DNA from: an uncultured bacterium
GTDB lineage: Bacteria > Verrucomicrobiota > Verrucomicrobiia > Verrucomicrobiales > V1-33
NCBI GenBank assembly: GCA_903954065.1
Contig: CAJBME010000343.1
Coordinates: 5,876-69,875 of the forward strand
Direction: 5' to 3'
Length of the DNA stretch: 64,000 bases
The translations under genes were made by a program, and so were the position numbers. Below the pieces are notes generated by a model. That model did no database searches and had not been told where the DNA came from. It was given only the letters and a program-made list of their open reading frames with translations. Shown here piece after piece: positions 30,419-47,861 of the stretch. How positions within the stretch are numbered: the first letter of the stretch is position 1; every line of letters starts with the position of its first letter.

Positions 30419-31551
30419 TGAGTGACCTCAAACCGATGGAAGCCGTGGCCGCCTTGTACGCAGAAGGCCGCCAAGACGAGGCCCGCGCCATCATCGCCAG
30501 TCTCGCCCGGGCCGTCTTCGAAGGACCACATCAGTCCCCGGCCGGCCCCGCCCAACGGCTCATGGCCCGCGCGAGCCACCGACTACTCCAATGGACCACC
30601 CGCCGCCACGAGAGCGCAGCCCCCGATCAACCCGCCGCCGGATTTCGCAATCGCTTGCTCGAGCGCTCAGGTCACCCGTACGCCAGCTCCCTGCTCGCCT
30701 CGTCCCATCAGGACGTCGAATCACTCGTCGAAGGCGGCGATCCCATGAACGGCCCCTACATGATGATCGCCCCGGAAATCCGCGGGGCTGGCAGTCGATG
30801 GGACCGCCTGTTCTTCAACTCCGTGCAAGGCCGTGATGTGCAGCTGCGATTCATCTGGGAAACACGAGCCACGTATGAAGCCGCCTGCCATCGCCTCGAT
30901 CAAGGCCGACCCGTGCGAATCAAGGCGCTCGCCGCCGGCACCGGACTCAGCCTGATTCTGGCCTATACCCAGTTGCTGCAAAACGGCTACAACCCCGACA
31001 TGATCTCGGTCAGCATCACCGACCGAGACGCGTCTAACACCAGCAAAACCGGGCGCCTGCTCGCCAAACTGGAATCCACCCGCTCCCGCATCATCAGCCA
31101 CGAAGGCGCCGCCGGTATCGCCGCCATCACCGAAGACTTATTCGAAGCCGGAACCACCGGCGACCCGTACGACGTGGTCACGGCCGTCGGCATCCTCGAA
31201 TACTTTCCAGGCTTCACCTGCGAGACAACCGAACAACGCCTACGCCTACCGCAGCCAGCCGAGACAGCCACCGCCCTCCACCTCGCGGCCAAAATCGGTG
31301 AGATCACAGCCCCGTCCGCTTCGTTAATCACCAATACATACCGCCCACACGCGAGCACCCGGATCCTCGAGGTCTTTGGCAAACGCTTCGACTACCGCGA
31401 AAGAACTCACGTCGCAGCCCTGCTCGCCACCGCCAATTTCCAGCCCGCACGTCTGGTCGGATCAGGCGCCATCTACGACGTCGAAGTCCACGAAAAAAGT
31501 GACGACAAAACTTCCACCCCCCTCATCCTCCCGCCCGGTCACCTCGCCTAA
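30415..31551 (+). CDS. Class I SAM-dependent methyltransferase-like protein
   Basis: KALAAGTG motif I, DVVTAVGILEYF; ATGA overlap with leuA. Confidence 0.6.
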   Translation: MMSDLKPMEAVAALYAEGRQDEARAIIASLARAVFEGPHQSPAGPAQRLMARASHRLLQWTTRRHESAAPDQPAAGFRNRLLERSGHPYASSLLASSHQDVESLVEGGDPMNGPYMMIAPEIRGAGSRWDRLFFNSVQGRDVQLRFIWETRATYEAACHRLDQGRPVRIKALAAGTGLSLILAYTQLLQNGYNPDMISVSITDRDASNTSKTGRLLAKLESTRSRIISHEGAAGIAAITEDLFEAGTTGDPYDVVTAVGILEYFPGFTCETTEQRLRLPQPAETATALHLAAKIGEITAPSASLITNTYRPHASTRILEVFGKRFDYRERTHVAALLATANFQPARLVGSGAIYDVEVHEKSDDKTSTPLILPPGHLA

Positions 31552-31594: not shown

Positions 31595-33253
31595 ATGCAC
31601 GTCCTCACGAGTTTCCGATGCGCCTTGCTGGGCCTCACGCTGGCTCTGGCCGGGTGCAGCAAATACTCTTCCGTTAGCACCCAGCAACTAACCTACGGCG
31701 CCACCACCCCGGCCGGCGTCCGTATCTCCGCGGCCCTTCGACACCCTGATAAAGAACCGCTGCGCCAAATCGGTGGGTATCTCGATGCCGCGGCCATCGC
31801 CGGCCAAGCGCTCAAAACACAACCCGACGACACCCAGGCCCGAACCGATTATAATTTTGCCCTCAGCCGCATCATGGAGGTCATCCATGAGGCCGGCTTC
31901 AAACCATGGATCACCCCACTACAATGCCCCGGAGAAGAAGGCCCATGGATCGTCCGTTACGAAACCGTGGGTCCCAAATCCCCGTATGATCCAGCTTTTT
32001 TCCGCGTCCTGCCAGCGGACCGCTACGAGTTTAAAGGACGTCTCGTCACCGAACGCACCATCAAACCCGGTCTCGGCGCTCCCTTGGTCATCAACAACCA
32101 AGGATTCGACGCCACCACCATCGACCCCTTCGCCCAAGGCCGTAGCCTCTACTACGGTCTGACCGCCATCGCCCAGTTCAACAACCGACAGGTCACCCTG
32201 ACCACCCTCGACCCACTGGCTCGCGAAACCGTCGATTTCAACAACCGGTCCTACCCGCTCGCCGCAGACTTCACCGCGCCCATCGGCCTCGCCCTCGCCG
32301 AATTAAAACCGCGCAAAATGGAAGTCGCCCGGATGTTCAAACCGGACAAATTCAAGGCCACCACCCGCTTGGCCCGGCTTCAGCCATACGATCCAGAAAA
32401 AATTCCCGTGCTTCTCATCCACGGACTGGGCGACTCCCAAGCCACCTGGGCCCCGATGATCGAGTCGCTGCGCGGCGACGCCACCATCCGGAAAAACTAC
32501 CAATTCTGGTTCTTCAGCTACCCCACCGGTTACCCGTACCCGCTGATGGCCTCCGTCCTGCGCGAGCAACTCAAAGCCATGAAAGCCACCTACCCCGATC
32601 ATAAAAAAATGGTCGTCGTCGGTCACAGCATGGGTGGAATGATCGCCCGCTCACTCATCACCGACAGCGGATTAAATTTGTGGAACGCCTACTTCGACAC
32701 TCCTCCAGATCAAACCAATCTGCCGGAAGAAACCCTCCAGATCATGAAAGGCGCCCTTGTCTTCCAGCCCCACCCAGACATCTCCCGCGTCATTTTTGCC
32801 TCCGCTTCCCTGCGCGGAAGTGACATGGCCACTAACATCATCGGTCGGCTCGGCTCCAAACTGATCGGCAGCCCGTCCGTCCTGCTCGACGGCGGACAAG
32901 AGGCACTGCGCCTCGCCAAACCCTCCGATGTCACCGGCAATCCAATCACCCGCATGCCCAACAGCGTGGATGCACTCGATCCCGAAAATAGGTTTCTCCT
33001 CACCATCAACGCCCTACCCCTCGCCCCCGGCATCCCGTACCACTCCATCATCGGCGACCGCGGCAAAGGCGGTAACTTAAACCGAGTCAAACCCGTCAGT
33101 ACCGACGGCATCGTCCCGTACTGGAGCAGCCACCTCGACGGAGCCCAAAGCGAGCTCATCGTCCCCAGTGACCACTGGTCCAATCAAAACCCCCAAGCCA
33201 TTGCCGAAGTGAACCGCATTCTCAAGCAACACTTGGGAGCCGCCGCCCGCTAA
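31595..33253 (+). CDS. Alpha/beta-hydrolase lipoprotein (lipase/esterase-like)
   Basis: Lipobox LAGC, LLIHGLG, GHSMGG, DGIVPY, late His. Confidence 0.85.
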   Translation: MHVLTSFRCALLGLTLALAGCSKYSSVSTQQLTYGATTPAGVRISAALRHPDKEPLRQIGGYLDAAAIAGQALKTQPDDTQARTDYNFALSRIMEVIHEAGFKPWITPLQCPGEEGPWIVRYETVGPKSPYDPAFFRVLPADRYEFKGRLVTERTIKPGLGAPLVINNQGFDATTIDPFAQGRSLYYGLTAIAQFNNRQVTLTTLDPLARETVDFNNRSYPLAADFTAPIGLALAELKPRKMEVARMFKPDKFKATTRLARLQPYDPEKIPVLLIHGLGDSQATWAPMIESLRGDATIRKNYQFWFFSYPTGYPYPLMASVLREQLKAMKATYPDHKKMVVVGHSMGGMIARSLITDSGLNLWNAYFDTPPDQTNLPEETLQIMKGALVFQPHPDISRVIFASASLRGSDMATNIIGRLGSKLIGSPSVLLDGGQEALRLAKPSDVTGNPITRMPNSVDALDPENRFLLTINALPLAPGIPYHSIIGDRGKGGNLNRVKPVSTDGIVPYWSSHLDGAQSELIVPSDHWSNQNPQAIAEVNRILKQHLGAAAR

Positions 33254-33367: not shown

Positions 33368-34138
33368 ATGAAACTCCATCGCCCGCTCCTGACTCTGTGC
33401 TCCCTCCTCTGCCTACTCTCCCTCGGCACCACCAAAGCCGATGAATCCATCGACTCCCTCGTTCAACAGGCCGCGGTCTTTGATCAAAACCTCCAAGCCG
33501 CTGAGGCCCTCGCGTGCTACCTGCCAGCTGAAAAGGCCGATCCCAAGAACGTGACCGTCCTGCTGGGCATCGCGAGGCAATACCGCCACCTCATGGCCGA
33601 CGCGAGCGATCCAGAAGAAAAAATCCGCCTCGGAAAACTCGGCCATGGCTACGCCCTGCGAGCCGTCAGCCTCGCCCCCAATGAGGCCGAAACCCACCTC
33701 TCCGTCGCCATCAGCCACGCCAAAATGTCTCCACTCCTCGACAACAAAGAGAAAATGGAGGCCTCCAGCCAAATCAAAATCTTCGTCGATCGGTCAATCG
33801 CCCTCGACCCAAGCAAAGATCTCGCCTGGCACGTCCTCGGCTGCTGGCATCAACGACTCGCCGACCTCGGAGTCGTCAAAAGAACTCTCGCCCGCATCGT
33901 CTACGGAAAACTCCCCGATGCCTCCAACGAAGAAGCCGTTCAATGCTTCAAAAAAGCCATCGAACTGGACCCGAACCGCCTCATCCATCACATCGAACTC
34001 GGTCGCACTTACGCCCAAATGGGCATGGTCCCAGAAGCGAAAGAATACCTGAAAAAAGGCCTCTCCATGCCCAATACAGGTAAAGACGATCCCGAAATGA
34101 AAAAACGAGGTTTAGAAACTCTGGCTGGCTTGGAATAA
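33368..34138 (+). CDS. Secreted TPR protein resembling RMDN (regulator of microtubule dynamics) family
   Basis: Signal peptide; helical repeats; WHVLGCWH...RIVYGKLPDASNEEAVQCFKKAIELDP resembles RMDN1-type TPR. Confidence 0.65.
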   Translation: MKLHRPLLTLCSLLCLLSLGTTKADESIDSLVQQAAVFDQNLQAAEALACYLPAEKADPKNVTVLLGIARQYRHLMADASDPEEKIRLGKLGHGYALRAVSLAPNEAETHLSVAISHAKMSPLLDNKEKMEASSQIKIFVDRSIALDPSKDLAWHVLGCWHQRLADLGVVKRTLARIVYGKLPDASNEEAVQCFKKAIELDPNRLIHHIELGRTYAQMGMVPEAKEYLKKGLSMPNTGKDDPEMKKRGLETLAGLE

Positions 34139-34342
34139 ACCTATTTCGTATGGAAAATGAGTGATCCTAGTTTTTGATGCGTCGCGCACCACCCGCACAT
34201 CAGGCCAAGCGCTCCTCCACCTTCCCCAAAATACTCACGCTCCCCCCAAAATGGGGAGGAATATCCACATGCGTGGAACAATGGCTTGCCACCGGTTGAA
34301 TTGACACAACTATCTGAGCCCGCCCTGCAAGGCGCCACTCGT

Positions 34343-37300
34343 ATGCATAAAGAAGCCATCGCAATCATCGGAGTCGGATGCCGCTTTCCCGGCGGAGTCA
34401 ATGACACAGAGTCATTTTGGAAAATGCTGGCGGACGGGCTGGATGTTGTCTCGGAAGTTCCTTCTGATCGCTGGAACGTCGACCGGTTCTACGATGCGGA
34501 GCCCGGGCTGGCCGGCAAGACGATTGCCAAACGAGGCGGATTTCTCGACAACATCGATCAATTTGACCCTCAATTTTTCGGGATTTCTCCTCGCGAAGCG
34601 CCTTACATCGACCCCCAACAGCGCCTACTGCTGGAAACCGCCTGGGAGGCGATCGAAGACGCTGGCGTCGTTTTGGATTTTGAACGTGGCACGGATATCG
34701 GGGTGTTCATGGGAGTTTCCCATAACGACTACCAGAACATTCAAGGCGGTTCTGCCGACCGTTCCGGGATCAGCGCCCACTCGCCCACGGGAAGCGCCCA
34801 CAGTATTGCCGCCAACCGGATTTCTTACTGCCTCAACCTTCTGGGGCCCAGCATGTCGATGGACACGGCCTGCTCCTCCGCCCTGACCGCAGTGCACATC
34901 GCCTGCGAACAAATCAGGACAGGCCGGTGTCGCATGGCCATGGCCGGAGGTGTGACTGTCATGATCACACCCGATGGATTCATCGGTTTCTCGCAGGCCG
35001 GCATGCTCTCGCCCGACGGGCGATGCGCCGCCTTCGACGCCTCAGCCAACGGATTCGTGCGCGGTGAGGGAGCAGGCATCGTCCTGCTCAAATCTCTCAG
35101 TCAGGCTCTGGCCGACGGCGACCCGATCCGCGGCGTCATTCTTGGCTCAGCCCTGAATCAAGACGGTCATACCAATGGCATCTCCCTGCCCAGCCCGGAA
35201 GCCCAAGCCCAGTTAGTGCTGGACGCCTGCGCCGACGCCGGCATCAACCCGTCCGAGGTCGGATTCGTCGAGGCCCATGGTACCGGCACCGCCGTCGGTG
35301 ACCCCATCGAAGCCACCGCCCTCGCCAACGCCCTCTGCCCCAACCGCCCGACCACGCAGCCACTGCCCATCGGCTCGGTCAAAACCAATCTCGGCCACCT
35401 CGAAACCGCCGCGGGCATCGTCGGCTTGATCAAAGGCCTGCTCGTCCTCAAACACCGTCAGATCCCAGCCAGTCTGCACTTCACCACCCCGAACGAACAT
35501 ATCGATCTCGCGGCGCTGAAACTCAGGATTCCCACACGTCTGGAAGCATTTCCTGAACTTTCTGGAGACAACAGCCGCCGCATCGTCGGCGTTAATTCTT
35601 TCGGATTCGGCGGAGCCAATGCCCACGTCATCCTAACCGAACCACCAGTCGCCACGCCAGCACCCGCCACCACCATGTCCCAAGAACGGGCATGGCCAGC
35701 CGTTCTCTCCGCACGGTCCGAGTCCGCTCTGCAGGCCGCCGCCACTCGCTTGGGCGCTTGGGTGACCAAACATGAACAAGGCAACGGTCACTCGCCTCTA
35801 CTGCCCGCCCTCACCTATACCCTCGGCGCGCGCCGCAACCACCACGCCCACCGCCTCACTCTAGTCGCCCGGTCGTCCGAAGAACTGGCCCGCGAATTGC
35901 ACGACTTCGCCGCCGGCACCGCCGGCCATCAAGCGCGCACCTCGTTCTCGCCACGACGCGAAGCCGCCCCACGCATCGGATTCATCATGAGCGGACAAGG
36001 CCCCCAATGGTGGGGCATGGGTCGCGAGTTGATGAAAAATGAGCCTGTCTTCCGCCAGACCATGGAAGCCTGCGCTCACGCCATGCAGCCGCATGCCCGC
36101 TTCTCGCTGCTCGAAGAACTGGCCCGCGATGAAGCCAGCTCCAAGCTCCAGCAAACGGAAATCGCCCAGCCCGCCATCTTCGCCATGCAGCTATCGCTGG
36201 CCGAGCTCTGGAAATCGATCGGCGTCACCCCGTCCGCCATCGCCGGCCACAGCGTCGGCGAAATCGCCGCCGCCTGCGCCGCCGGTATCCTCAGCCTCGA
36301 GGAAGGCTGTAAAGTCATCGTCCTGCGCGCCCGCCTCATGCACGAATGCGCGCGCGGCGACGGCACCATGCTCGCCGTCGGCCTCTCGGAAGAGGAAGCC
36401 GTCACCCTGCTCAACGACTTCGATGGCAGTGTCACCATCGCCGCTTTCAATGGCCCCAAATCCCTGACCCTCTCCGGCCCACGATCCACCCTTGAAGTCA
36501 TCCTCGCCACCCTGGAATCCCGGGCCGTCTTCGCCCGCTTCGTCCGCGTGGACCACCCGTTCCATCACGCCCTGATGCAACCGGCCGCCGACGCCCTCAC
36601 CGAGGCGCTCGCCACCCTCAGCCCCAGACCTGAAACCACCCCGTTCTTCAGCACCGTCACCGGCCAACGCTGCGGCGGTTCAGACTGTACCGCCGCCCAT
36701 TGGGGACGCGGTATTAGACAACCGGTCCAGTTTGTTCCCGCCGTCTATGCCCTCGCCGACTTCGGCATCGACGTCTGGCTGGAAATCAGCTCACACCCAG
36801 CCCTCTCGCTGTCGATTCAAGAATGCCTCAGCGCCCGCAACCTGAAAGCATCCGTCACCGCTTCCACTCGCCGGGAACGCGAACACGAATGTTTCCTCGA
36901 AGCTGCGCTCGATCTGCACCGCGCCGGGGTCGCCCTCGACTTCGCGGCCATGACGCCGTCCCGGGAATTCCTTCCTCTGCCCGCCTACCCGTGGGATAAA
37001 AGCAAATGGTGGCACGAATCCAGTGAGCTGCGCGACGGCCGGTTATCGCCCGGTGGCAAAGGCCTGCTGGACTCGCGCTTACCGCGGGCCACCCCCACAT
37101 GGACCACGCGTCTCGACGGTCGGCACATGGCCTTTCTGAAAGACCACAAGGTCGATACTCACATCATTTTTCCAGCCGCAGGATTCGTGGAAATGGTCCT
37201 CGAAGCCGGCGTGCAATTGTTCGAAGGCCGGCCGTTCGCCATCGAGGACTTTGAGATCCGCAAACCTCTCCTGCTGCCAGACCCGCCGTCAGGATTGGTC

Positions 37301-40300
37301 ATGGAACTCACGTACGAGCCAGGCGAACGCACGTTCACCATTCAAAGCAAATTCGAACAAGCCGCCACCTGGTCGGTCCACGTCGTCGGCTCCATGCGCG
37401 CCGAACGCACCGAATCATCGTTCGGCGTTTCCTCATGGCAGCCTCCGGCCAGCGACATGAATACCGAAGGCGTCGGCCAGTTTTATGGCTACATGAGCGA
37501 CCTCGGCCTGCGCTACGGCGACGAATTCCGGCCCATCCGTGAATTGGCCGCCGGCCACGGCCAGTCCACCGGACGCGTCTCGCTGTCCCCAGCCATTGAA
37601 CGCCGCGCCTCCGAATACGCCCTGCACCCGGTCCTGCTCGACGGCGCACTCCAAGTCTTCTCAGCCGGCGCCCGGACGGTGGAAGAACGGCGCTCGAAAA
37701 TGAAGCTGCCCGTCCGCTTCGCCCGCATCCTCTTCCTGCGATCACCCGGCGCTTCCAGCCGCGTTAATGCCCGCGTCCTCCACTTCAACGAAGAACTCAT
37801 CGAGGGAAGGATCTCCCTCTATGACGAAACCGGGCGCCCCTGCGTGCTTGTCGACGGATTCCGTGCCATCAGCATGACCGCCGCCCGCCGGCCAGGCGCT
37901 TCCGGTGGCGGCCGCGACCTGTTGTACCATGTGGATTGGGAACGGTTCACCACCACCGCCGCCCCGGCCCCGCTCGCTCCAGTTCCTCTGGCCCGGCTCC
38001 ACGAGGTGGCCACCCGCACCCTCAACGACATCATCAGCATTCGGGGACGCGAAGAATTGGAATCGGTGATGGCCGCGGAAGATACCCTCGCCGCTGCCCA
38101 ACTCGCCCACGGACTGCATCAGACCGGCGCCAACTTGCACGCCGGCTTCAACGCCAGCTCGCTGGGGGTCGCCCCAGCCATGCACACCGTCTTCACACGG
38201 CTCATGAATAGCCTCGTCGGCCGAGGCCTGCTCGCCGCCACCCCAGACGGATTCATTCCATCGCCAGCATTCGACGCCGCCGCCGCTTCCGCCTCCGACG
38301 CCCTGCGCGATTTCATCCTCGAACATCCCGGCCACCTCCCGGAAGGCCTGCTCTGCGCATCCACCTGCGCCGAACTCGGCCCGATTCTGCGCGGCGAAAA
38401 AGACGCCGTGCAAATCCTCTTCAGCGGCCCCGGCGCCGAACTGCTCGATCAATTCTACGGAGACGGCCTGTTCGCCAGTCACTGGATGGCCAGCATCACC
38501 AGCGCCGTCCAAGAAGCCGCACGCCAGCTGCCCGAAGGCCGGGGCTTGCGCCTCCTCGAAATCGGAGCCGGTACCGCCGGTCTCGCCGCCCAAATGCTGC
38601 CGCTGCTCGACCGCGGCCTGCATTCCTACGTCTTCACCGACGTCTCGGCTGGATTTTTCCCCAGCGCCAATCAAAAATTGGCCGCCTTCCCAGAGGTCGA
38701 ATACAAAGTCTTCGATCTGGAAAAACCTTCTGAAGATCAAGGGTTTACCAACAACTCGTACGATTTCATCGTCGGCACCAACGTCCTGCACGCCGTGGCT
38801 GACGTGCGCGCCACCCTCAAGACATTGCATGGATTGCTCGCCCCAGGCGGCACGTTGATGTTCATGGACGTGGCCACCCCCCAACTGTGGACCGAATCAG
38901 TCTTCGGCCTGACCAGCGGATGGTGGCATCTGACCGATCGCGACCTACGGCCCGAACAGCCACTGCTCCAGCGCGCCCAATGGGAAGCCGCCCTCAAAGA
39001 AGCCGGCTTCGCCGAAACCATCTCGCTCCCCGGCCTGCACGGACCTCACGGTGAAGGACAAATCGCCGTGCTGGCCCGCAAAACAACTGCGGCCGCCGAC
39101 GCCAATAGCGGCGCAGCTGACGCCCACGCTGGCGCCGAGGCGCAGGAAACCGCCCTCGAGCCGTCATGGCTCGTCTTCGCGGACGATGCCGGCCTCGGCG
39201 ACGCCTTAGCCGCCCGGGCCGTGGCCGCGGGTTCACGATGCAGGGTCGTCCACCGCGGCCCAGCTTTCAGCCACCCCGCCGCCGACGCCTTCACGCTGCG
39301 CCCCGGCGAAGCCGCTGACTGGAAACAACTTTTCGCCGCCCTCGGCGCCGAGGACTCACCCCGTCACCTCGTCTATTTGTGGACACTCGATGAACGTCCA
39401 GGTAACGGACCCGAAGATGCCCTGATGGGCATCGACGCCCTGCTCCACCTGACTCACTCGCTAGAAGAAACCATGTCCGTCGCAAAATTGCGGTTTGACC
39501 TGGTGACGCGCGGCGCTCAGCCCGCCGGCCGTGACATGGGAGCCACCACCATAGCCCAAGCCCCCGCCATTGGCCTCTTCCGAGTCATCCTCAGCGAACA
39601 TCCGCAGTTCTCCTGCCGAAGCATCGACCTGCCACCCGTGACCAACGCGGCAGATTTGGACTCGCTCTGGCATGAAATCCTGCAAGGCGCACCCGAACGG
39701 GAAATCGCCCTGCGCGGTGACGCGCGCTACGCCCAGCGACTAACCCGTGGCCTGCCCGCTCGTGAACAACGGCTCGCCGCAACAACCCCGCTGCGCCTCG
39801 AATCACGCGAACGAGGATTGCTCGACAGCCTGCGGTTCACCCCGTTCATCATGCCCACCTGCGGACCGGATGAGGTCCTGATTAAGGTACGGGCCGCTGG
39901 CATGAACTTCCGCGACGTGCTTAAAGCCCTCGCCCTCTACCCAGCCGAAACCGCAGACGCCCGCATCTTCGGCGATGAAATCGCCGGAGAGGTAGTGGCC
40001 GTGGGTTCCGCCGTCACTCACGTGCAGCCCGGCGACCGCGCCTTCGGCCTCGCCGTCTTCGGCCTCGCCACTCATTCGCTGGCCCGAGGCGCCGACGTGC
40101 GCCCCATGCCCGCCAATCTCACCTACGAGGAAGCCGCCACCCTCCCGGTCGTCTTCATGACCGCATGGCACGCCCTCAAAACCGTCGCCCGCATCAAACA
40201 GGGTGACATGATCCTCGTCCACGCCGGGGCCGGCGGCGTAGGCATGGCCGCCATCCAGATCGCCCACCACCTCGGAGCCACCGTCATCGCCTCCGCTGGC

Positions 40301-42046
40301 AACCCCACCAAACGCGCCCTACTGCACACGCTCGGTGTCAAACACGTCATTGACTCGCGCCGCGGTGACTTTGCCGAGACGGTCATGGAACTGACCCACG
40401 GACGCGGCGTCGACATCGTGCTCAACGCCCTCGCTGCCGAAGCCATCCCCATGGGGCTTTCCTGCTTGGCCGAATTCGGACGCTTCATCGAAATCGGCAA
40501 ACGCGACATCTATCAGAATTCCCGGCTACCGCTCTGGTCGCTGCGCCGCAACGCCTCGTTCCACGTGGTCGCCATGGATGCCGTTTTTGCCGGCGATGCC
40601 GAGCAGACACGCGAATTGATGCTGGAGATTTCCGACCTCGTGGAAGTCGGCGCCCTCCGCCCACTGCCGTACCGCTCGTTCCCCGCCAGCCGCATCGACG
40701 CCGCCTTCCGCCTGATGGCCGGCGGCCGCCACACCGGCAAAGTCATCGTCGCCTTCGCCGACGCGTTCCTCCTGCATCAAGGCGAACCCCCGCTGCCACC
40801 GTTCGACATCAAACCCGACGGCGCCTATCTCATCACCGGCGGACTCGGCGGATTCGGCCGCGTCCTCGCCGAATGGCTCGTCGACTGCGGAGCCCGTCAT
40901 CTCGTCCTCACCAGCCGCAGCGGCGCCTCCACCCCAGAAGCCGCCGACTTCGTCGCTAGCTTGCAGAAACGAGGTATCGACACCCGCGTCGTCCGGGCCG
41001 ACATCGGCGCACCCGAGGACGTGCAACGCCTCATCCAAGGGCTTCAGTCCGAAACCACCCCGCTCAAAGGCGTGTTCCATCTCGCCATGGTCATCGATGA
41101 CGCACCTCTCTCCGCCCTGACCAGCGAACGACTCCGCACCGTCATGGCCCCCAAAGCCCACGGCGCCTGGCTCCTCCACGAAAATACCAAAGACCTCGAG
41201 CTCGATTGCTTCGTCATGTTCTCGTCCGTCTCCAGTATCTTCGGCAATCCCGCCCAAGGCAATTACGCCGCCGCCAACGCCTTCCTCGATTCGCTGGCCC
41301 ACCACCGCCGGTCCCTCGGCCTGCCCGCCCTCGCCATCAACTGGGGAGTTCTCGGCGGCGAAGGATACGTCGCCCGCAATGAACGCGTGGCCGAATTCCT
41401 CGCCCGCCAAGGCACCGCCGCCCTGACCCCGCGGGAAGTCACCACTCTCATGGAATCATTCCTGACCGCCCACGCCACCCAAGTCGCCGCCATCCGCGTC
41501 GATTGGGCCAAATGGCGGCAGTCATTCCGCGGAATGCAGGAAAATCCGCTGGTCGAACGCATCTTCGCCTCCGGCGTCGAACTGCAGGAAACAAGCGGCG
41601 GCAATAGCGACTGGCGTCAACGCATCCAAGCCGCCACCGACGAGGAACGCGACAACGTCATCGGCCAAGCCGTTCGCGAGGTCGTCGGGTCCGTGCTGCG
41701 CGTGAAACCCGAAAGCCTGCGCGATGACCAACCGCTGACCGACCTCGGTCTCGACTCGCTCATGGGCGTGGAAATCGAAAACCTCATCGAAAGTTCCATC
41801 GGCGTGGCCCTTCCTCCCACCAGCCTGATGCGGGCCCGTACCATCGGCCAAATCGCCTCGCTCATCTCCGAACACATCGGAGGTAGCCAGGCCGCCGCCG
41901 CCACCGAAAACACCGCCACCACCACCCAGTCACTGCCCGCCGCCGAAATCGATGTCGACTCCCTCTCGGACGATGACATCGATGCCCTGCTCGGCGGCTC
42001 CTCCGACTCCGAGCCCGCCTCCCCAGGGCTGACCACCCGTTCCTAA
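34343..42046 (+). CDS. Single-module highly reducing type I PKS, KS-AT-DH-cMT-ER-KR-ACP
   Basis: KS DTACSS/HGTGT; AT GHSVG and HPFH; DH HKVDTHIIFP and HPVLLD; cMT EIGAGTAG; ER HAGAGGVG; KR TGGLGGFG, IDD, NY; ACP GLDSL. Confidence 0.95.
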   Translation: MHKEAIAIIGVGCRFPGGVNDTESFWKMLADGLDVVSEVPSDRWNVDRFYDAEPGLAGKTIAKRGGFLDNIDQFDPQFFGISPREAPYIDPQQRLLLETAWEAIEDAGVVLDFERGTDIGVFMGVSHNDYQNIQGGSADRSGISAHSPTGSAHSIAANRISYCLNLLGPSMSMDTACSSALTAVHIACEQIRTGRCRMAMAGGVTVMITPDGFIGFSQAGMLSPDGRCAAFDASANGFVRGEGAGIVLLKSLSQALADGDPIRGVILGSALNQDGHTNGISLPSPEAQAQLVLDACADAGINPSEVGFVEAHGTGTAVGDPIEATALANALCPNRPTTQPLPIGSVKTNLGHLETAAGIVGLIKGLLVLKHRQIPASLHFTTPNEHIDLAALKLRIPTRLEAFPELSGDNSRRIVGVNSFGFGGANAHVILTEPPVATPAPATTMSQERAWPAVLSARSESALQAAATRLGAWVTKHEQGNGHSPLLPALTYTLGARRNHHAHRLTLVARSSEELARELHDFAAGTAGHQARTSFSPRREAAPRIGFIMSGQGPQWWGMGRELMKNEPVFRQTMEACAHAMQPHARFSLLEELARDEASSKLQQTEIAQPAIFAMQLSLAELWKSIGVTPSAIAGHSVGEIAAACAAGILSLEEGCKVIVLRARLMHECARGDGTMLAVGLSEEEAVTLLNDFDGSVTIAAFNGPKSLTLSGPRSTLEVILATLESRAVFARFVRVDHPFHHALMQPAADALTEALATLSPRPETTPFFSTVTGQRCGGSDCTAAHWGRGIRQPVQFVPAVYALADFGIDVWLEISSHPALSLSIQECLSARNLKASVTASTRREREHECFLEAALDLHRAGVALDFAAMTPSREFLPLPAYPWDKSKWWHESSELRDGRLSPGGKGLLDSRLPRATPTWTTRLDGRHMAFLKDHKVDTHIIFPAAGFVEMVLEAGVQLFEGRPFAIEDFEIRKPLLLPDPPSGLVMELTYEPGERTFTIQSKFEQAATWSVHVVGSMRAERTESSFGVSSWQPPASDMNTEGVGQFYGYMSDLGLRYGDEFRPIRELAAGHGQSTGRVSLSPAIERRASEYALHPVLLDGALQVFSAGARTVEERRSKMKLPVRFARILFLRSPGASSRVNARVLHFNEELIEGRISLYDETGRPCVLVDGFRAISMTAARRPGASGGGRDLLYHVDWERFTTTAAPAPLAPVPLARLHEVATRTLNDIISIRGREELESVMAAEDTLAAAQLAHGLHQTGANLHAGFNASSLGVAPAMHTVFTRLMNSLVGRGLLAATPDGFIPSPAFDAAAASASDALRDFILEHPGHLPEGLLCASTCAELGPILRGEKDAVQILFSGPGAELLDQFYGDGLFASHWMASITSAVQEAARQLPEGRGLRLLEIGAGTAGLAAQMLPLLDRGLHSYVFTDVSAGFFPSANQKLAAFPEVEYKVFDLEKPSEDQGFTNNSYDFIVGTNVLHAVADVRATLKTLHGLLAPGGTLMFMDVATPQLWTESVFGLTSGWWHLTDRDLRPEQPLLQRAQWEAALKEAGFAETISLPGLHGPHGEGQIAVLARKTTAAADANSGAADAHAGAEAQETALEPSWLVFADDAGLGDALAARAVAAGSRCRVVHRGPAFSHPAADAFTLRPGEAADWKQLFAALGAEDSPRHLVYLWTLDERPGNGPEDALMGIDALLHLTHSLEETMSVAKLRFDLVTRGAQPAGRDMGATTIAQAPAIGLFRVILSEHPQFSCRSIDLPPVTNAADLDSLWHEILQGAPEREIALRGDARYAQRLTRGLPAREQRLAATTPLRLESRERGLLDSLRFTPFIMPTCGPDEVLIKVRAAGMNFRDVLKALALYPAETADARIFGDEIAGEVVAVGSAVTHVQPGDRAFGLAVFGLATHSLARGADVRPMPANLTYEEAATLPVVFMTAWHALKTVARIKQGDMILVHAGAGGVGMAAIQIAHHLGATVIASAGNPTKRALLHTLGVKHVIDSRRGDFAETVMELTHGRGVDIVLNALAAEAIPMGLSCLAEFGRFIEIGKRDIYQNSRLPLWSLRRNASFHVVAMDAVFAGDAEQTRELMLEISDLVEVGALRPLPYRSFPASRIDAAFRLMAGGRHTGKVIVAFADAFLLHQGEPPLPPFDIKPDGAYLITGGLGGFGRVLAEWLVDCGARHLVLTSRSGASTPEAADFVASLQKRGIDTRVVRADIGAPEDVQRLIQGLQSETTPLKGVFHLAMVIDDAPLSALTSERLRTVMAPKAHGAWLLHENTKDLELDCFVMFSSVSSIFGNPAQGNYAAANAFLDSLAHHRRSLGLPALAINWGVLGGEGYVARNERVAEFLARQGTAALTPREVTTLMESFLTAHATQVAAIRVDWAKWRQSFRGMQENPLVERIFASGVELQETSGGNSDWRQRIQAATDEERDNVIGQAVREVVGSVLRVKPESLRDDQPLTDLGLDSLMGVEIENLIESSIGVALPPTSLMRARTIGQIASLISEHIGGSQAAAATENTATTTQSLPAAEIDVDSLSDDDIDALLGGSSDSEPASPGLTTRS

Positions 42047-42050
42047 GTCC

Positions 42051-43445
42051 ATGGCGGAAGAAGACAACCGCGCCCGCCTTAAGCGGTGGCTGGAAAGCGG
42101 GGAAGCCCGCCTTCACCCGCTCAGTTTCCCCCAGCGCGAGCTGTGGGAAAACTCGCCGGTTCCCGCCGGGGATCCGGCCAACCACATCTGCGCCTCCATC
42201 GAAATCAAAGGCGGCATCACCCGCGAAGAATGCGAGGCCGCCCTGCAAAAAGTGATCGACCGGCATGAGGTCATGCGCCTGTCGGTCTTGCCGGGCAAGG
42301 ACAGGCCGGTGCACATGATCCGCTCCACGGGCACGGCCTCGCTGGGTTTTCGCCAGCTGTCCGCCGCCGAGGCCCAGCCGGCCGCCCTCGAATCCTTGAT
42401 GCAGGATGTATCTGCACGGCCGTTCGATCTCCTGCAAGGCCCGCTCTACCGGGTCGAGATGATGCAGCGAAGCACCTCCGATCACATTCTGGCCTTTTCG
42501 ATTCATCATGCCATCGCCGACGGCTGGTCCCTCGGTGTTTTTGTGCAGGATCTTTCCACCGCCTATGTCATGGGGCTGAATGGGCTGCGACGAGCCGTGG
42601 CCACGGGCGTCATGAAGCTGAACGACTCGCTGCCACCCGTGCCCCAAACCCACAGTGCCTGGGCCGCCGCCGAACGGGCGTTCTGGCAGCCCCCGGAGCT
42701 CGAAAGACGCGCTGGATTTTGGAAATCACAGCTGGATGGCTCCCGGCGGCTCTGGCATCATCATGACGGTTCCGCCCGCGGCACCGGCCCGCTCGCCCGG
42801 TGCGTCTGCTCGCTGCCAGCCAACCTGACCCGCAGCATCAAAGACCTCGCTTTGAAAAATGGCGCCACCTTGTTCAGCACCCTGCTCGCCGCATTTCAGG
42901 TCGCTCTGGAAAAATGGACTGGTCAGGATGATACGGTCGTCGGCACCCCGGTCGCCAACCGCAACAAAGAAGTCGTTCGCCAGACCATGGGCTACTTCGC
43001 CGGCATCGTCCCGCTCCGCGGACAACTCGACCGCCGCATGACGTTTTCCCAACACCTTGCCTCCGTGCACAACCGGGCCGTCGACTGCTTCGCCCACGCC
43101 ATGCCCTTCGCCGAACTCGCCCGCACTCTTGGTGAGGCCAGCGGCCCAAGCCAGCACTCGATCTTTGACGTCCGCTTCGCCCTACAAAACCACCCGGTCC
43201 CGGACGTGGTCCTACCGCGCATCTCAACCCGGTTGCGCATGCGTTCCACCGGCACCGCACGCTTTGACCTCGCCTGCGAAATCACCGAGACCGGAGCGGA
43301 GATGGAGGTTGTCTGGCTGCATCGCGAGGCTATGATCTCGCGTAAGGAGGTGATGGACTTGGACGGATTGTTCCGCTCCGTGCTCGTCCGCATTTCTCAA
43401 AACCCGGAGAGCCGCTTAGACGCCGCCATCGTATCCCATTCATGA
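42051..43445 (+). CDS. Stand-alone NRPS-type condensation domain protein
   Basis: LSFPQRELW, intact HHAIADGW, GTPVANR; no A or T domain. Confidence 0.9.
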   Translation: MAEEDNRARLKRWLESGEARLHPLSFPQRELWENSPVPAGDPANHICASIEIKGGITREECEAALQKVIDRHEVMRLSVLPGKDRPVHMIRSTGTASLGFRQLSAAEAQPAALESLMQDVSARPFDLLQGPLYRVEMMQRSTSDHILAFSIHHAIADGWSLGVFVQDLSTAYVMGLNGLRRAVATGVMKLNDSLPPVPQTHSAWAAAERAFWQPPELERRAGFWKSQLDGSRRLWHHHDGSARGTGPLARCVCSLPANLTRSIKDLALKNGATLFSTLLAAFQVALEKWTGQDDTVVGTPVANRNKEVVRQTMGYFAGIVPLRGQLDRRMTFSQHLASVHNRAVDCFAHAMPFAELARTLGEASGPSQHSIFDVRFALQNHPVPDVVLPRISTRLRMRSTGTARFDLACEITETGAEMEVVWLHREAMISRKEVMDLDGLFRSVLVRISQNPESRLDAAIVSHS

Positions 43446-44494
43446 ATCCGCCGTCTCCTCCCCACCCCACCATCATTTTACCCACGGCTCACAGCGAAAG
43501 CCGGCCCGTCGCTCATGATGACGACGAACACGGCCAGACTCACTGGGTCAGCCGGGCCGCCTTTCCCCTCATTGGCGCCGGCTTGGTGCTTTCCCAGACC
43601 GCCCTCGGATTCGCCCTGTTTTACGGCTGGATCTGGCTGGCCATCCCTTTGGTCATTCTCGTCAGCCACTTCATGCACGGCGCCCTGATCGGGTTTCACG
43701 AAGCCTCGCACGGCATGCTCCGCAAAAACCGCCTGCTCAATGAAGTTGATGGCGTGCTGGCTGGGGTGCTCAGCTTCATGAGCTTCACCCTCTACCGCGC
43801 CGCTCACCAAACTCATCACATGCACCTCGCCACCGAACGCGATGAGGAATTGTGGCCGTTCGTCAATGTGAAGGCCCCACTGTGGAGCCGCCGTCTGGCC
43901 GCCGCCATCGAACTCAATCTAGGCCTGCTCTTCACCCCGTTCCTCTTCTGGCGCATTTTCTTCCGCAAAGATTCACTCATCCGTAGCCGGAAAGTGCGGC
44001 GACGCATCTGGTTGGAATTCTGGATGTTGGTCGGATTCTGGACCGCCGTCCTCACCGCCGTCGCGTGGTCAGGAACGTGGCTGTACTTCACCTGGACCTT
44101 TCTCGTCCCAGGCCTCATCGCCGGAAATCTGCAAAGCTGGCGCAAATACATCGAACACGTCGGCCTCAGCGGCCACACCGCTCGCAGCGCCACCCGTAGC
44201 ATCGTCGCCGATACTTGGTCCGGTCGGCTGCTCTCCCTGACCCTGCTCCATGAACCATTCCACGGCGTGCACCACCTGAAAGCCGGGCTACCCCATTATG
44301 AACTCCCACTCCACGCTCACTCGCTCGAGCCCGCCGCCGAGGGCGAAATGAAGCCGTTTCCCAATTACCGCAGCGCCCTGAAACACTTGCTCCAAAACCT
44401 GTCAGACCCACGCGTCGGCAGCCACTGGCCGGACGCCAGCCCACACGCCGCCCGCCACCCTGTCCCCACCGCCCACCACGTCCCCCAGTCATGA
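43442..44494 (+). CDS. Membrane fatty-acid desaturase family protein
   Basis: His boxes HEASH, HQTHH, HGVHH; TM segments; ATGA overlap with the C-domain gene. Confidence 0.9.
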   Translation: MNPPSPPHPTIILPTAHSESRPVAHDDDEHGQTHWVSRAAFPLIGAGLVLSQTALGFALFYGWIWLAIPLVILVSHFMHGALIGFHEASHGMLRKNRLLNEVDGVLAGVLSFMSFTLYRAAHQTHHMHLATERDEELWPFVNVKAPLWSRRLAAAIELNLGLLFTPFLFWRIFFRKDSLIRSRKVRRRIWLEFWMLVGFWTAVLTAVAWSGTWLYFTWTFLVPGLIAGNLQSWRKYIEHVGLSGHTARSATRSIVADTWSGRLLSLTLLHEPFHGVHHLKAGLPHYELPLHAHSLEPAAEGEMKPFPNYRSALKHLLQNLSDPRVGSHWPDASPHAARHPVPTAHHVPQS

Positions 44495-45198
44495 TTGCAC
44501 CACCCACTTCTCAGACGGGAGACATCGTCTTTGAGGCCCGCCAGCTCGCTAAAGAATTCGACGGCGGTCAGGTCGCCGCCTTGCGCGGGGTGGACTTTCA
44601 AATCCGGGAGCACGAATTCGTCGCCATCGTCGGCCCCAGCGGCTGCGGCAAAAGCACCCTGCTGCAAATGCTCGGTTCGCTCGACCACCCCACTAGCGGC
44701 AGCCTGACCTACCGCGGCGCTTCCATCCCCGGCATGCCCGACCCTTCCGCCTATCGCGCCCATCACATCGGCTTCGTCTTTCAAGCGTTTCACCTACTGC
44801 CGACTTTCAACGTCGTCGAAAACGTGCAAATCCCCATGTTCGAGGGCGGCTTGTCCCGCACCCAACGCCGGGAGCGCGCCGTCGACCTCCTCAAATCTGT
44901 CGGCCTCGACCACCGTCTAGGTCACTTTCCTTCGCAATTGTCCGGAGGCGAACGCCAGCGCGTCGCCATCGCCCGCAGTCTCGCCAACCGGCCGTCCGTG
45001 CTACTGGCCGACGAACCGACCGGCAACCTCGATAGCGAAAATGCCGTGCACGTCATGGAATTGATCCTCAAATTACACCGCGAGTTAGGCATGACCTTGA
45101 TCCTCGTCACTCATGACCCATCCATCGCCGCCCAAGCATCCAGAACGATCCGCATGAAAGACGGCCGCGTCGTGCCCGCCGACAGCCCCCACCCGTAG
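44491..45198 (+). CDS. ABC transporter ATPase (LolD/MacB type)
   Basis: GPSGCGKST, LSGGERQRVAIAR, LADEPTGNLD. Confidence 0.95.
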   Translation: MIAPPTSQTGDIVFEARQLAKEFDGGQVAALRGVDFQIREHEFVAIVGPSGCGKSTLLQMLGSLDHPTSGSLTYRGASIPGMPDPSAYRAHHIGFVFQAFHLLPTFNVVENVQIPMFEGGLSRTQRRERAVDLLKSVGLDHRLGHFPSQLSGGERQRVAIARSLANRPSVLLADEPTGNLDSENAVHVMELILKLHRELGMTLILVTHDPSIAAQASRTIRMKDGRVVPADSPHP

Positions 45199-45211
45199 CC
45201 CGCTCATCCCT

Positions 45212-46327
45212 ATGACATTTTTCACCATCGTGGTCCGCAGCCTGGTGCGGCGCCCCGTCCGCACCGGGTTGACTCTCGTCGGGATCTCCATCGGTATCGC
45301 CGCCGTCGTCGCCCTCGTCGGCATGGCGTGGGGATACGAAAAAAGCATCGTCCGCCAGCTCGACGTCATCGGGATCGACGTCGTCGTCAGTAATATGAGC
45401 GGCGGATTGATGCCGAAGGTCTTCGACGAATCCCTCGAAGAAAAAATCGCCCCGCTACCGAAGGTCGCCGCCACCACCTCCGTTCTCATGCAAATGCTCA
45501 GCATCGAGGACGCCCCCATGATGATGATCTCAGGCCGGGAATGGGGCGGATTCACCTGGGACAAAATCTCCGTCATCGAAGGCCGCCTGCCCCACAACGC
45601 CACCGAACGCGCCGTCGTCATCGGACGACTGGCCGCCGAAGTACTCAAGAAAAAACCCGGCGATACCGTGCAAATCGAGGCCGATGAACTGCCCGTCGTC
45701 GGCATCATCGACGGCCAAGCCGTCGTCGAAAATGGCGCTATTATTCTTTCACTCAATGTTTTACAAGAGATCACTCTGAACGAGGGTAAGGTGAATTTTG
45801 TCGATATCCGCGTCACCCCAGGCACCACCAAACAAGAGGTGACCGCCCTCTGCGATTCCATCAAAGAAATTTTCCCGGAAGGCCGGGCCATGGTCGCCAG
45901 CGAAGTCGTGGGCACCAGTCAAGGGTTTCGCGTGGCGCGCGCCATGAGCTGGAGTACTTCCCTGCTGGCCATCATCGTCGGGGTCCTCGGCGTGATGAAT
46001 ACCATGCTCATGACCGTCTTCGAACGCACTCACGAGATTGGTATTCTGCTCGCCGTCGGCTGGAAACGACGTCGTATCATGTTAATGGTTCTACTGGAAT
46101 CAGCCCTACTCGGCCTACTCGGCGGCGTGCTCGGAGTCGCCCTCGGCGCCCTCGGCTTAAAAATCCTCGAAACAACCCCCGCCATTCGCGGCCTGCTAGA
46201 ACCGGATTTAAGCCCGCGCCTCCTGCTCATCTCCATCGCCATCGCCGTCGTCGTCGGCGTCATCAGCGGTCTCTACCCGGGCTGGCGCAGCTCCCGCCTC
46301 TCCCCCAGCCTCGCCCTCCACGGATAA
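45212..46327 (+). CDS. ABC permease (MacB/FtsX-like, type VII)
   Basis: RTGLTLVGISIGIAAVV, large periplasmic domain, VFERTHEIGIL.AVG. Confidence 0.9.
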   Translation: MTFFTIVVRSLVRRPVRTGLTLVGISIGIAAVVALVGMAWGYEKSIVRQLDVIGIDVVVSNMSGGLMPKVFDESLEEKIAPLPKVAATTSVLMQMLSIEDAPMMMISGREWGGFTWDKISVIEGRLPHNATERAVVIGRLAAEVLKKKPGDTVQIEADELPVVGIIDGQAVVENGAIILSLNVLQEITLNEGKVNFVDIRVTPGTTKQEVTALCDSIKEIFPEGRAMVASEVVGTSQGFRVARAMSWSTSLLAIIVGVLGVMNTMLMTVFERTHEIGILLAVGWKRRRIMLMVLLESALLGLLGGVLGVALGALGLKILETTPAIRGLLEPDLSPRLLLISIAIAVVVGVISGLYPGWRSSRLSPSLALHG

Positions 46328-46360
46328 CGGCCCCACCCCGCCTCCACCCCCGCCACCGAC

Positions 46361-47176
46361 ATGATCACTTCCCGCCTGCGCCCACTCCTGCTCGCCTCCC
46401 TGCTCGGAGCCGCCCTCATCGCCTCCCCCGTCGCCGCTCAGGAATCAACGCCCAGCGCCCGTGAACTCTCCTCCCAACTCGCCGCCGGCATCCAAGACGG
46501 CGCGTCCACTGTGCGCCTGAAAATCGAGTTCCGCGCCGCCGCCACCGCCCCCAACTCCGTCCTCCAACTGGCCGTTAAATCACTGCGAACTGAGGCCACC
46601 ACCAAACTTACCTACCAGGTGCTCTGGCCCAAAGAACGAAAAGGCGAAGGCTTTACCCTGAATCGGTCAGACGACAGCCCCGTCACCGGAGCCGTCTTCA
46701 CCCCGCCCGACTCGCTCCGCCCCCTGCCCCCGCCCCCCGCCGGCTGGCAGGAACCCGTCTTCGGCAGCGACCTCTCGTACGAAGACCTGCTCGACAACTT
46801 CTTCGCCTGGGAGCACCAATCCATCACCGGCACCGAAACGATCGACCGCCTCCCCTGCCTCATTCTCGAATCTAAACCCGGTAAAAATCAGCGGTCCTCC
46901 TACAGCGCAGTCCGCAGCTGGATCGATCCGAAAAAACTCGTTCCCATGCGCATCGAGAAACTCCTCGCTTCCGGTCAGGTGGCGAGACGCATCGTCACTA
47001 CCCGCGTCGCCAAGGACGACACCGGTCGCCCCGTCGCCTCCAGCTTTTCAGTCAGCCGCCCAGGACACGACTCACTCACGGAACTCGAAGGATCCAGCAG
47101 CCGCCATGAAGTCACCCTGAGCGAAGCCGACTTCACCCCAGAAGCCTTGCGCAGTCCAACCGCCAAAACCCGCTAA
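46361..47176 (+). CDS. LolA-like outer-membrane-sorting periplasmic protein
   Basis: Sec signal peptide; FGSDLSYEDL and YS.VRSWID..LVPMRIE motifs. Confidence 0.75.
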   Translation: MITSRLRPLLLASLLGAALIASPVAAQESTPSARELSSQLAAGIQDGASTVRLKIEFRAAATAPNSVLQLAVKSLRTEATTKLTYQVLWPKERKGEGFTLNRSDDSPVTGAVFTPPDSLRPLPPPPAGWQEPVFGSDLSYEDLLDNFFAWEHQSITGTETIDRLPCLILESKPGKNQRSSYSAVRSWIDPKKLVPMRIEKLLASGQVARRIVTTRVAKDDTGRPVASSFSVSRPGHDSLTELEGSSSRHEVTLSEADFTPEALRSPTAKTR

Positions 47177-47345
47177 ACACCCTCGCCCTCACGCTCCAGG
47201 CCACCACCCAACAGCCGCATTACCGCGCTGGAGGTCGCCCTGACCGGTGCGGAAGCAGAAATTAGTCACAAAAAACCCCGCATTTCCCACCGCCGCGCAA
47301 AATCAGTCTTGCGGCGAGATGATGCGGAAGCCACTCTCTCGATCC

Positions 47346-47861
47346 ATGTCGGACAAGACCATCACCCGCCGCCCACGCCTGATTGGGCCGCGTCGAACTT
47401 TCGCCATTGTGGCCAGCACCTTCAATGAAGACTTCGTGCAAGGTCTCATTGACTCGTGCCGCAATGAGATCGTCGCCCTGCTCCCCAACTCCAGCATCCC
47501 CCTTTACCGGGTGCCCGGCGCAGGCGAAATCCCCGTGTGCGCGGAATACGTTCTGAATCACACCGGCGCCGATGTCGTCATAGCTCTGGGTGTCGTCCTC
47601 GAAGGATCCACCGCCCACGCCGACATCATCGCCCGGACCGTAGCCACCCAGCTGGCTGAAATGGCCGTTCGCCATGAACTGCCCGTCATCAATGAGGTCC
47701 TGCTCCTCAAGGACGAGGAACAAGCACGCGAACGATGCTTCGGCTCAGAACTCAATCGTGGGGTGGAAGCCGCTCGCGCCGCCCTCACCATGGCCGAACT
47801 CTTCCAAAAACTACACACCGCCTACCCCGGCGTCCGTGAACGCGATCGCGCCAGCACATGA
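47346..47861 (+). CDS. ribH: 6,7-dimethyl-8-ribityllumazine synthase
   Basis: VPGAGEIP, LGVVLEGSTAH, PVINEVL; linked to nusB. Confidence 0.92.
   Translation: MSDKTITRRPRLIGPRRTFAIVASTFNEDFVQGLIDSCRNEIVALLPNSSIPLYRVPGAGEIPVCAEYVLNHTGADVVIALGVVLEGSTAHADIIARTVATQLAEMAVRHELPVINEVLLLKDEEQARERCFGSELNRGVEAARAALTMAELFQKLHTAYPGVRERDRAST

Follow-up and report, generated by a model that had tools for sequence, protein, structure and literature searches.

A verrucomicrobial locus linking a polyketide synthase and a free-standing condensation enzyme to a Lol-like transport module: a candidate pathway for lipid synthesis and export

Introduction

The mycobacterial phthiocerol dimycocerosate (PDIM) and sulfolipid systems, composed of Mas or Pks2, PapA5 or PapA1/2, DrrABC/MmpL7, and LppX, bring together an iterative-type reducing polyketide synthase (PKS), a methyl-branched chain, offloading by an enzyme of the HHxxxD condensation superfamily, ABC export, and a lipid binder of the LolA superfamily. 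Here we describe a locus with the same overall logic, found in a 64,000-nucleotide stretch of DNA (hereafter the window) from a freshwater-lake verrucomicrobial metagenome-assembled genome (MAG; 5.2 Mb, 377 contigs). At the center of this locus are six tightly packed plus-strand genes (34343-47176) encoding a type I PKS, a free-standing condensation (C) enzyme, a di-iron membrane enzyme of the FA_desaturase family, an ABC ATPase and its permease, and a LolA-like protein. Taken together, these genes probably constitute a dedicated pathway that makes a polyketide-derived lipid and exports it via a Lol-like route, a reading that we favor with moderate confidence.

Several other described systems resemble one part or another of this locus. 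Stand-alone C enzymes, including VibH, Bamb_5915 of the enacyloxin pathway, and Zmn19 of the zeamine pathway, offload a carrier-bound acyl group onto a soluble amine or alcohol. The Sup PKS was reportedly described by Fieseler et al. in 2007 as having the domain set ketosynthase (KS), acyltransferase (AT), dehydratase (DH), methyltransferase (MT), enoylreductase (ER), ketoreductase (KR), and acyl carrier protein (ACP). Methyl-branched fatty acids have been proposed as the product of this small, mono-modular type I PKS of sponge microbiomes (PMC3908369, PMC4245539). With respect to transport, LolA2 and LolB2 of the flexirubin locus have been proposed as carriers of pigment to the outer membrane (PMC11885536), and a Borrelia triad composed of a MacB-like ABC transporter and a LolA-like protein (BBJ26-28) is predicted to carry a non-polar ligand to the same destination (PMC13078400).

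Gene layout and conservation

The original prediction described six co-oriented genes, and the list of open reading frames (ORFs) gives identical coordinates and spacing: from the PKS gene through the LolA-like gene, successive genes are separated by a 4-nucleotide gap, two 4-nucleotide ATGA overlaps, a 13-nucleotide gap, and a 33-nucleotide gap. The two overlaps lie on either side of the desaturase gene, which is thereby translationally coupled to both the C gene and the ABC ATPase gene. While all six predicted genes were verified, the restriction of the system to six was not upheld, as upstream genes to 30415 also travel with the block; hyp378 and abhyd625 are members of the system, and TPR256 probably is as well. 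The features of the locus are as follows:

30415..31551, plus strand: hyp378, a cytoplasmic protein with a predicted class I S-adenosylmethionine (SAM)-methyltransferase fold, without Pfam or NCBIfam family
31595..33253, plus strand: abhyd625, a predicted lipoprotein alpha/beta-hydrolase with a PGAP1-like lipase/deacylase fold
33368..34138, plus strand: TPR256, a secreted tetratricopeptide repeat (TPR) protein (Pfam TPR and RMD1-3)
34343..42046, plus strand: type I PKS of 2,567 aa, a single module with domains KS-AT-DH-cMT-psiKR-ER-KR-ACP (cMT, C-methyltransferase)
42051..43445, plus strand: free-standing C enzyme of 464 aa, nonribosomal peptide synthetase (NRPS)-type condensation (PF00668)
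43442..44494, plus strand: di-iron FA_desaturase-family membrane protein of 350 aa (PF00487), a desaturase or hydroxylase
44491..45198, plus strand: LolD/MacB-type ABC ATPase (PF00005)
45212..46327, plus strand: type VII MacB/LolC-like ABC permease (MacB_PCD and FtsX)
46361..47176, plus strand: LolA-like protein, secreted and soluble, with a LolA3-type half-barrel (PF17131)

The block is flanked by housekeeping genes, with leuA upstream and ribH, nusB, and ftsY downstream. Although a longer PKS frame is open from a TTG codon at 34286, the ATG codon at 34343 reads MHKEAIAIIGVGCRFPGG.

At nine relative loci, drawn from three families of the order, the six genes keep a constant order as far as each contig extends; one of these loci (L014) is cut by a contig end and has no LolA-like match. 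The PKSs encoded at these loci are 62-81% identical, with ~2,550 aa aligned in the eight full-length copies. The six-gene block is likewise present in two MAGs labelled Chthoniobacterales and in the cultured organism Chthoniobacter flavus, where it encodes a PKS of 2,556 aa, a C enzyme of 452 aa, the desaturase, the ABC ATPase and permease, and a PF17131 protein. Two complete 8-Mb genomes (G382 and G394) also carry the block, with the LolA-like gene located before the ABC genes. The association of the six genes is far beyond chance, and the transport genes, whose separation from the PKS had been named in the original prediction as grounds for abandoning it, are retained in the relatives, the Chthoniobacterales-labelled MAGs, C. 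flavus, and the 8-Mb genomes.

The distribution of the system was assessed using the C enzyme as a marker (E<=1e-80). Within the order, the marker was found in 48 of 201 genomes (24%), representing 14 of 46 genera, and in none of the small Akkermansia-like genomes; within the class it was found in 13 of 401 genomes, seven of them from four families outside the order. A phylum-wide sample returned 0 of 300, a figure of little weight because most of the genomes sampled were Akkermansia-like or non-Verrucomicrobiae. Together, a conserved block of shuffled gene order and these patchy counts indicate that the system is real, old, mobile in gene order, and accessory, and a system present in 24% of the order's genomes is not a core envelope pathway.

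Such a patchy, accessory spread (48/201 in the order, 13/401 in the class) is among the observations that would suit a different product, namely a secreted lipoamino acid, lipoamine surfactant, signal, or antibiotic for which the ABC transporter and LolA-like protein form the export route. MacB-type pumps export lipopeptides and glycolipids elsewhere, a free C enzyme paired with a free amine follows the logic of VibH and zeamine, and one genome (G467) contains two copies of the cluster. Nevertheless, we regard a secreted product as unlikely, since the window's operon has no membrane-fusion or TolC-like gene, a soluble lipid carrier in the periplasm, together with a lipoprotein hydrolase, is suited to a very hydrophobic, membrane-bound cargo, and a PKS identity of 62-81% is unusually high for a secondary-metabolite PKS.

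With respect to expression, the full 30000-48500 interval is matched at 95-99% identity by contigs of an estuary metatranscriptome, and three other metatranscriptomes, freshwater samples included, cover it in part; these data weakly suggest that close relatives express the block in nature.

The polyketide synthase

Pfam analysis of the PKS yields the domain order KS, AT, DH, methyltransferase, ER, KR, and ACP, and direct reading of the catalytic motifs agrees with the claim that this single module is intact. Specifically, the KS (DTACSS, HGTGT, NLGH), DH (HKVDTHIIFP, DGALQ), and cMT (LEIGAGTAG, NVLHA) motifs are intact, and the AT (GHSVG, HPFH), ER (HAGAGGVG), KR (GGLGGFG, VIDD, S..Y..N), and ACP (LGLDSL) motifs are present, VIDD being the LDD-type KR motif that is expected upstream of a DH. 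These motifs vary little or not at all across eight orthologous PKSs, among which identity in the C-methyltransferase domain is 65-87%; therefore, no domain of the PKS looks decayed. With all domains in order and their catalytic motifs in place, the protein is classed as a fully reducing, C-methylating type I PKS.

The combination of GHSVG and HPFH is the malonyl-type AT pattern, and it is present in 9 of the 9 PKS sequences compared, in support of the earlier assignment of malonyl-CoA from HPFH. Judged from these motifs, the AT signatures are of the malonyl type. The methylmalonyl signature (GHSQG / YASH) is absent, and the PKS, unlike those of the Mas/Pks2 type, possesses an intact cMT domain.

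The likeness to fungal highly reducing PKSs that had been drawn for this protein extends to domain order but not to sequence. The KS-AT-DH-cMT-ER-KR-ACP order is shared by fully reducing modules of type I PKSs and fatty acid synthases (FAS) in general, and a sequence search of the PDB places bacterial mycocerosic acid synthase first at 1037 bits; bacterial modular PKSs likewise score above the fungal LovB (712 bits). NCBIfam models for mycobacterial PKSs were nonetheless missed, with Pks2_ls1_myc at 1232 bits against a cut-off of 2400 and PKS_plus_SDR at 1346 against 1740.

According to Pfam, the PKS has no loading module, thioesterase (TE), or reductase, and no adenylation (A) domain, thiolation (T) domain, or acyl-AMP ligase is encoded in the cluster or on either side of it. 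Genome-wide, there is one type I PKS (34343..42046), one C domain, and one phosphopantetheinyl transferase (PPTase), along with three carrier domains: AcpP, the ACP of the PKS, and that of an unlinked A-T-hexapeptide-FMN_dh protein. The sole detectable PPTase (256 aa; L024:2148-2918, contig C11) adjoins pdxJ, and presumably serves both AcpP and the PKS.

How often the module acts bears directly on the product. A single module with an active KS cysteine and no loading domain would be compatible with non-iterative action, in which one C2 unit is added onto an acyl primer from type II FAS and the resulting 2-methyl-branched acyl-ACP is handed to the C enzyme. Pks13 and olefin synthase are precedents for non-iterative, single-module elongators of fatty acids, and the genome retains a normal FabF. 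We consider this possible but doubtful, as the iterative mycocerosic acid synthase type accounts for the closest homologue of solved structure and for the NCBIfam models that rank at or near the top (PKS_plus_SDR, Pks2).

The condensation enzyme and the membrane di-iron enzyme

The C enzyme matches PF00668 at 215 bits, against a gathering cut-off of 30.6, its HHAIADG motif is intact, and a hydropathy scan reveals no transmembrane segment. Its best solved relatives are LCL-type NRPS C domains, Txo2 and TycC (E ~1e-44 to 1e-41), while it is remote from VibH (E 1e-4) and from the enacyloxin C enzyme (6cgo, E 6e-4). The 56 PDB sequences matched by the enzyme at E<=1e-3 do not include PapA5. The parallel with PapA5 that had been proposed is therefore one of functional analogy and not of subfamily, the enzyme itself being NRPS LCL-like. 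More than 1,900 orthologues are found in metagenomes at E<=1e-100.

Because the locus provides no TE, reductase, A domain, or T domain, the C enzyme is presumed to be the only plausible release step and to couple the chain to a head group. Elsewhere in the genome (L023:2083-7251, contig C230) is encoded the unlinked A-T-hexapeptide-FMN_dh protein, which comprises 1,722 aa with AMP-binding, PP-binding, hexapeptide-transferase, and FMN-dependent dehydrogenase domains. In principle, this protein could supply the C enzyme with an acceptor bound to a carrier.

The product of the neighboring gene is assigned to the FA_desaturase superfamily by its Pfam match (PF00487, 103 bits), by three histidine boxes (HEASH, HQTHH, HGVHH), and by its membrane segments; the hydropathy scan places hydrophobic segments at 41-85 and 152-207, and there are about four transmembrane segments. 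NCBIfam matches are all weak and far below cut-off, including the GntB arginine hydroxylase (47 bits), DesA, and CrtR, and a PDB sequence search finds no solved relative. The gene is single-copy in the genome.

The ABC transporter and the LolA-like protein

The ABC ATPase, in which the Walker A, signature, and Walker B motifs are intact, has LolD (TIGR02211) as its best NCBIfam match, at 242 bits against a cut-off of 307.75. The permease scores 42.7 against a cut-off of 362.45 for lolCE (TIGR02212), such that neither protein reaches the LolCDE equivalogs. With MacB_PCD and FtsX domains, a topology by hydropathy scan of one transmembrane segment followed by a periplasmic domain of ~200 aa and three further segments, and a separate ATPase, the transporter belongs to the type VII (MacB-like) ABC class; permease identity across orthologues is 58-85%. 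No HlyD-type membrane-fusion protein is encoded among the genes from 28649 to 51906, and the transporter is accordingly not of the MacAB-TolC / DevBCA kind.

The LolA-like protein matches LolA_like PF17131 at 70.3 bits against a cut-off of 30 and carries a Sec-type signal peptide, ending VAA|QE, without a lipobox. Its AlphaFold2 (AF2) model (pLDDT 82) resembles 4z48, 9tp6 (Porphyromonas gingivalis LolA3), 3bk5, and 3buu with TM-scores of 0.74-0.84, while canonical LolA, LolB, LprG, and LppX match weakly. With TM-scores of 0.23-0.30 to LppX, the proposal of an LppX-like carrier is set aside; as judged from the modeled fold, the protein belongs to the LolA3/PF17131 group, and it is presumed to be a periplasmic lipid carrier.

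Given that LolD is the top NCBIfam match of the ATPase, that the carrier has a LolA-superfamily fold, and that a nearby gene specifies a lipoprotein, abhyd625, one might suppose the ABC and LolA-like genes to form a second Lol pathway for lipoprotein sorting, merely adjacent to an unrelated PKS operon. This we consider very improbable. Firstly, the transport genes stay with the PKS through rearrangements and across orders. Secondly, biosynthetic or tailoring genes are even inserted between the ATPase and permease genes, and the desaturase and ATPase genes overlap by 4 nucleotides. Additionally, the LolD and LolCE equivalog cut-offs are missed, and LolA3, the nearest relative of solved structure, does not pair with LolB (PMC13103446).

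Accessory genes

The accessory genes point to two tailoring variants of the system. No Pfam or NCBIfam family matches hyp378, and a PDB sequence search returned nothing useful; however, its motifs KALAAGTGLS, ITDRD, and VVTAVGILEYF follow the pattern of a glycine-rich motif I and an acidic motif II. The top Foldseek matches of its mediocre AF2 model (pLDDT 61, with a good core) are all SAM methyltransferases (TM-score 0.3-0.4), the C-methyltransferases of CurJ and citrinin biosynthesis among them. On the strength of this model and its distribution, hyp378 is a probable tailoring enzyme of the system: it occurs in 24 of the 201 genomes of the order, and all 24 are cluster-positive (Fisher 4e-18, kinship ignored). 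Its position takes three forms: upstream of the block in the window and in one relative (L011); after the LolA-like gene in two (L018, L019) or after the ABC permease gene in G382 and G394; and between the ABC ATPase and permease genes in another two (L020, L021). Matches to hyp378 with a single in-frame stop were seen in genus g15 and one other genome (G365, G347, G419, G436, G346), and may reflect decay or assembly error.

The longest ORF of abhyd625 begins at a TTG codon at 31376, overlapping hyp378 by 176 nucleotides, but an internal methionine at 31595 is followed by a lipobox (LAGC), so the real start is likely ~31595 and the protein is predicted to be a periplasmic lipoprotein. It matches Pfam PGAP1 and Abhydrolase_6 and has a GHSMGG nucleophile elbow. 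A role as a cytoplasmic thioesterase for the ACP was considered and is ruled out by the lipobox. The closest orthologues of abhyd625 directly adjoin hyp378, whose constant partner it is, and the pair accompanies the block in three gene orders; the wider abhyd625 family is multi-copy and is also present in cluster-negative genomes.

In L020, L021, and C. flavus, hyp378 and the hydrolase gene are separated by a gene for a patatin-like phospholipase of 1,300 aa. In the last of these, hyp378, the patatin, and the PGAP1-like hydrolase make up a module of their own, apart from the PKS operon (L025/L026) and adjoining a transposase, an extracytoplasmic function (ECF) sigma factor, and another methyltransferase. 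TPR256, which has a signal-like segment at its N-terminus, is encoded beside the cluster in six other genomes (L011, L013, L017, L019, G382, G394). Both 8-Mb genomes contain, between the desaturase and LolA-like genes, a 1.6-kb stretch (L028:16800-18400 in G382) with an ORF of 247 aa, in which no domain is recognisable.

The second variant involves an AsnB-type glutamine amidotransferase that is absent from the window's genome. Its MCGIAG N-terminus is intact, it is 67-82% identical among genomes, and orthologues occur in 27 genomes of the 201-genome sample, 27 of 27 being cluster-positive. In the loci examined (L012, L015, L016, L017, and, in G382 and G394, L028 and L030), the gene adjoins that of the PKS and is divergent from it, and among L012, L015, L016, and L017 its product is 71-82% identical; in almost every other genome it shares a contig with the C gene, at a distance of <=~10 kb. 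That this neighbor is simply a housekeeping asnB was ruled out, as orthologues (>=67% identity) are confined to cluster-positive genomes, where they accompany the PKS, and the AsnB paralogues of the window's genome are 33-37% identical. Among the 48 cluster-positive genomes, 21 have AsnB only, 18 have hyp378 only, six have both, and three have neither, an anticorrelation for which kinship was ignored. In G467, each of the two cluster copies (contigs C26 and C8) has an adjoining AsnB-like gene, and both AsnB matches contain an in-frame stop.

Proposed pathway

In the pathway that we favor, the making and export of a polyketide-derived lipid, the KS would be primed directly by a cellular acyl thioester, and extension with malonyl-CoA, SAM-dependent C-methylation, and full reduction would follow, probably over several rounds as in mycocerosic acid synthase, to give a saturated, methyl-branched acyl-ACP. 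The C enzyme would then move the chain from the ACP to a nucleophile of general metabolism, most likely a small head-group amine such as an amino acid, and the membrane di-iron enzyme would desaturate or hydroxylate the product at the inner membrane. Tailoring of the head group would fall to hyp378 in the window's genome and to the AsnB-type amidotransferase in other genomes. The near-alternative presence of these two enzymes suggests, as a hypothesis, a head group in which a carboxylate is left free, as it is in N-acyl amino acids; on one reading, each enzyme would cap that carboxylate, as a methyl ester or an amide. The MacB/LolC-type ABC transporter, acting without a membrane-fusion partner, would extract the lipid from the inner membrane and pass it to the LolA3-like carrier, which would ferry it to the outer membrane or surface, where abhyd625 may transfer or trim an acyl group. 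We infer the iteration, the nature of the acceptor, the choice between desaturation and hydroxylation, and the outer-membrane destination. In favor of a lipid product, lipid-acting genes (those encoding the patatin-like phospholipase and the PGAP1-like hydrolase) are embedded in some versions of the locus.

Several considerations weigh against this proposal. The usual acceptor of LCL-type C domains is an aminoacyl group bound to a carrier, and no such acceptor is encoded near the LCL-like C enzyme; more generally, nothing at the locus identifies the acceptor, and the pathway is without a known product. Iteration is not readable from sequence, and the carboxylate-capping idea has its sole basis in the anticorrelated distribution of two enzymes that six genomes hold together. 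Type VII ABC transporters do not flip their substrates, so the arrival of a cytoplasmically made lipid in the outer leaflet is unexplained, and the cluster encodes no LolB-like or outer-membrane receptor. The patchy spread of the system (24% of the order) fits an accessory or secreted metabolite equally well, and the metatranscriptome support is weak because of possible DNA carry-over. Finally, LolA3 has no function or phenotype on record, its deletion being without phenotype (PMC13103446, PMC11885536).

Significance

The locus ties biosynthetic enzymes to a MacB-like and LolA3-like module whose cargo has so far been identified in no organism. Identification of the product would define a new bacterial lipid, provide a function for the LolA3/PF17131 family and for the Pfam-less hyp378 family, and put to the test the idea that non-protein lipids have come to use Lol-type machinery beyond the pigment loci of the Bacteroidota. 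It is further conceivable, albeit as a tentative suggestion that may well not survive, that the locus represents the first dedicated Lol-like route (a type VII ABC transporter with a LolA3-type carrier) for non-protein cargo in the Planctomycetes-Verrucomicrobia-Chlamydiae (PVC) group, the cargo being a methyl-branched polyketide lipid of a new class, with a head-group carboxylate that is capped as a methyl ester (hyp378) or an amide (AsnB). Verrucomicrobia are abundant in soil and freshwater, and their envelope chemistry is almost unexplored; as a cultured carrier of the cluster exists (C. flavus), the question is directly testable.

Comparison with known systems

Full-text literature searches found no published description of this cluster. 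Relative to the mycobacterial systems, the parallel with PDIM drawn in the original prediction stands for the overall gene logic and fails for the methyl source, the C enzyme, the transporter, and the carrier. Here, methyl groups are expected from an in-line SAM-dependent cMT combined with a malonyl-type AT, while in PDIM synthesis they derive from methylmalonyl-CoA. The locus has no FadD-type loader, and its C enzyme is NRPS LCL-like and not PapA-like. Similarly, the transporter is of the type VII MacB/LolC-like kind and not DrrABC or MmpL, and the carrier is a secreted LolA3-type protein and not an LppX lipoprotein, in a host that is a diderm Gram-negative bacterium.

For the PKS alone, Sup is the nearest published concept, likened here by description and not by sequence. 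Sup clusters have been reported from sponge microbiomes only and have other neighbors, such as the SupE permease (PMC3908369), and no C enzyme, desaturase, or Lol-like module has been described for them. The flexirubin and aryl-polyene loci resemble the present locus in that a polyketide-type lipid locus has its own LolA-superfamily protein, but they differ in their type II PKS/FAS-like enzymes, aryl polyene products, other transporters, and LolB-like partner, and they contain neither a type I PKS nor a C enzyme. With respect to chain release, the pathways of VibH, Bamb_5915, and Zmn19 encode or obviously supply the acceptor, whereas that of the window does not.

The closest counterparts of the transport module, Borrelia BBJ26-28 and the LolA3 modules of P. 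gingivalis and Flavobacterium johnsoniae, lack both linked biosynthetic genes and a known cargo; in the present locus, unlike in those modules, the neighboring PKS and C genes nominate one. What the present analysis adds is an extended gene set, two tailoring variants, the LolA3 fold of the carrier, a quantified patchy spread, and a cultured carrier, and the locus as a whole is an undescribed variant of a known theme, that of a PKS lipid combined with a dedicated envelope export system.

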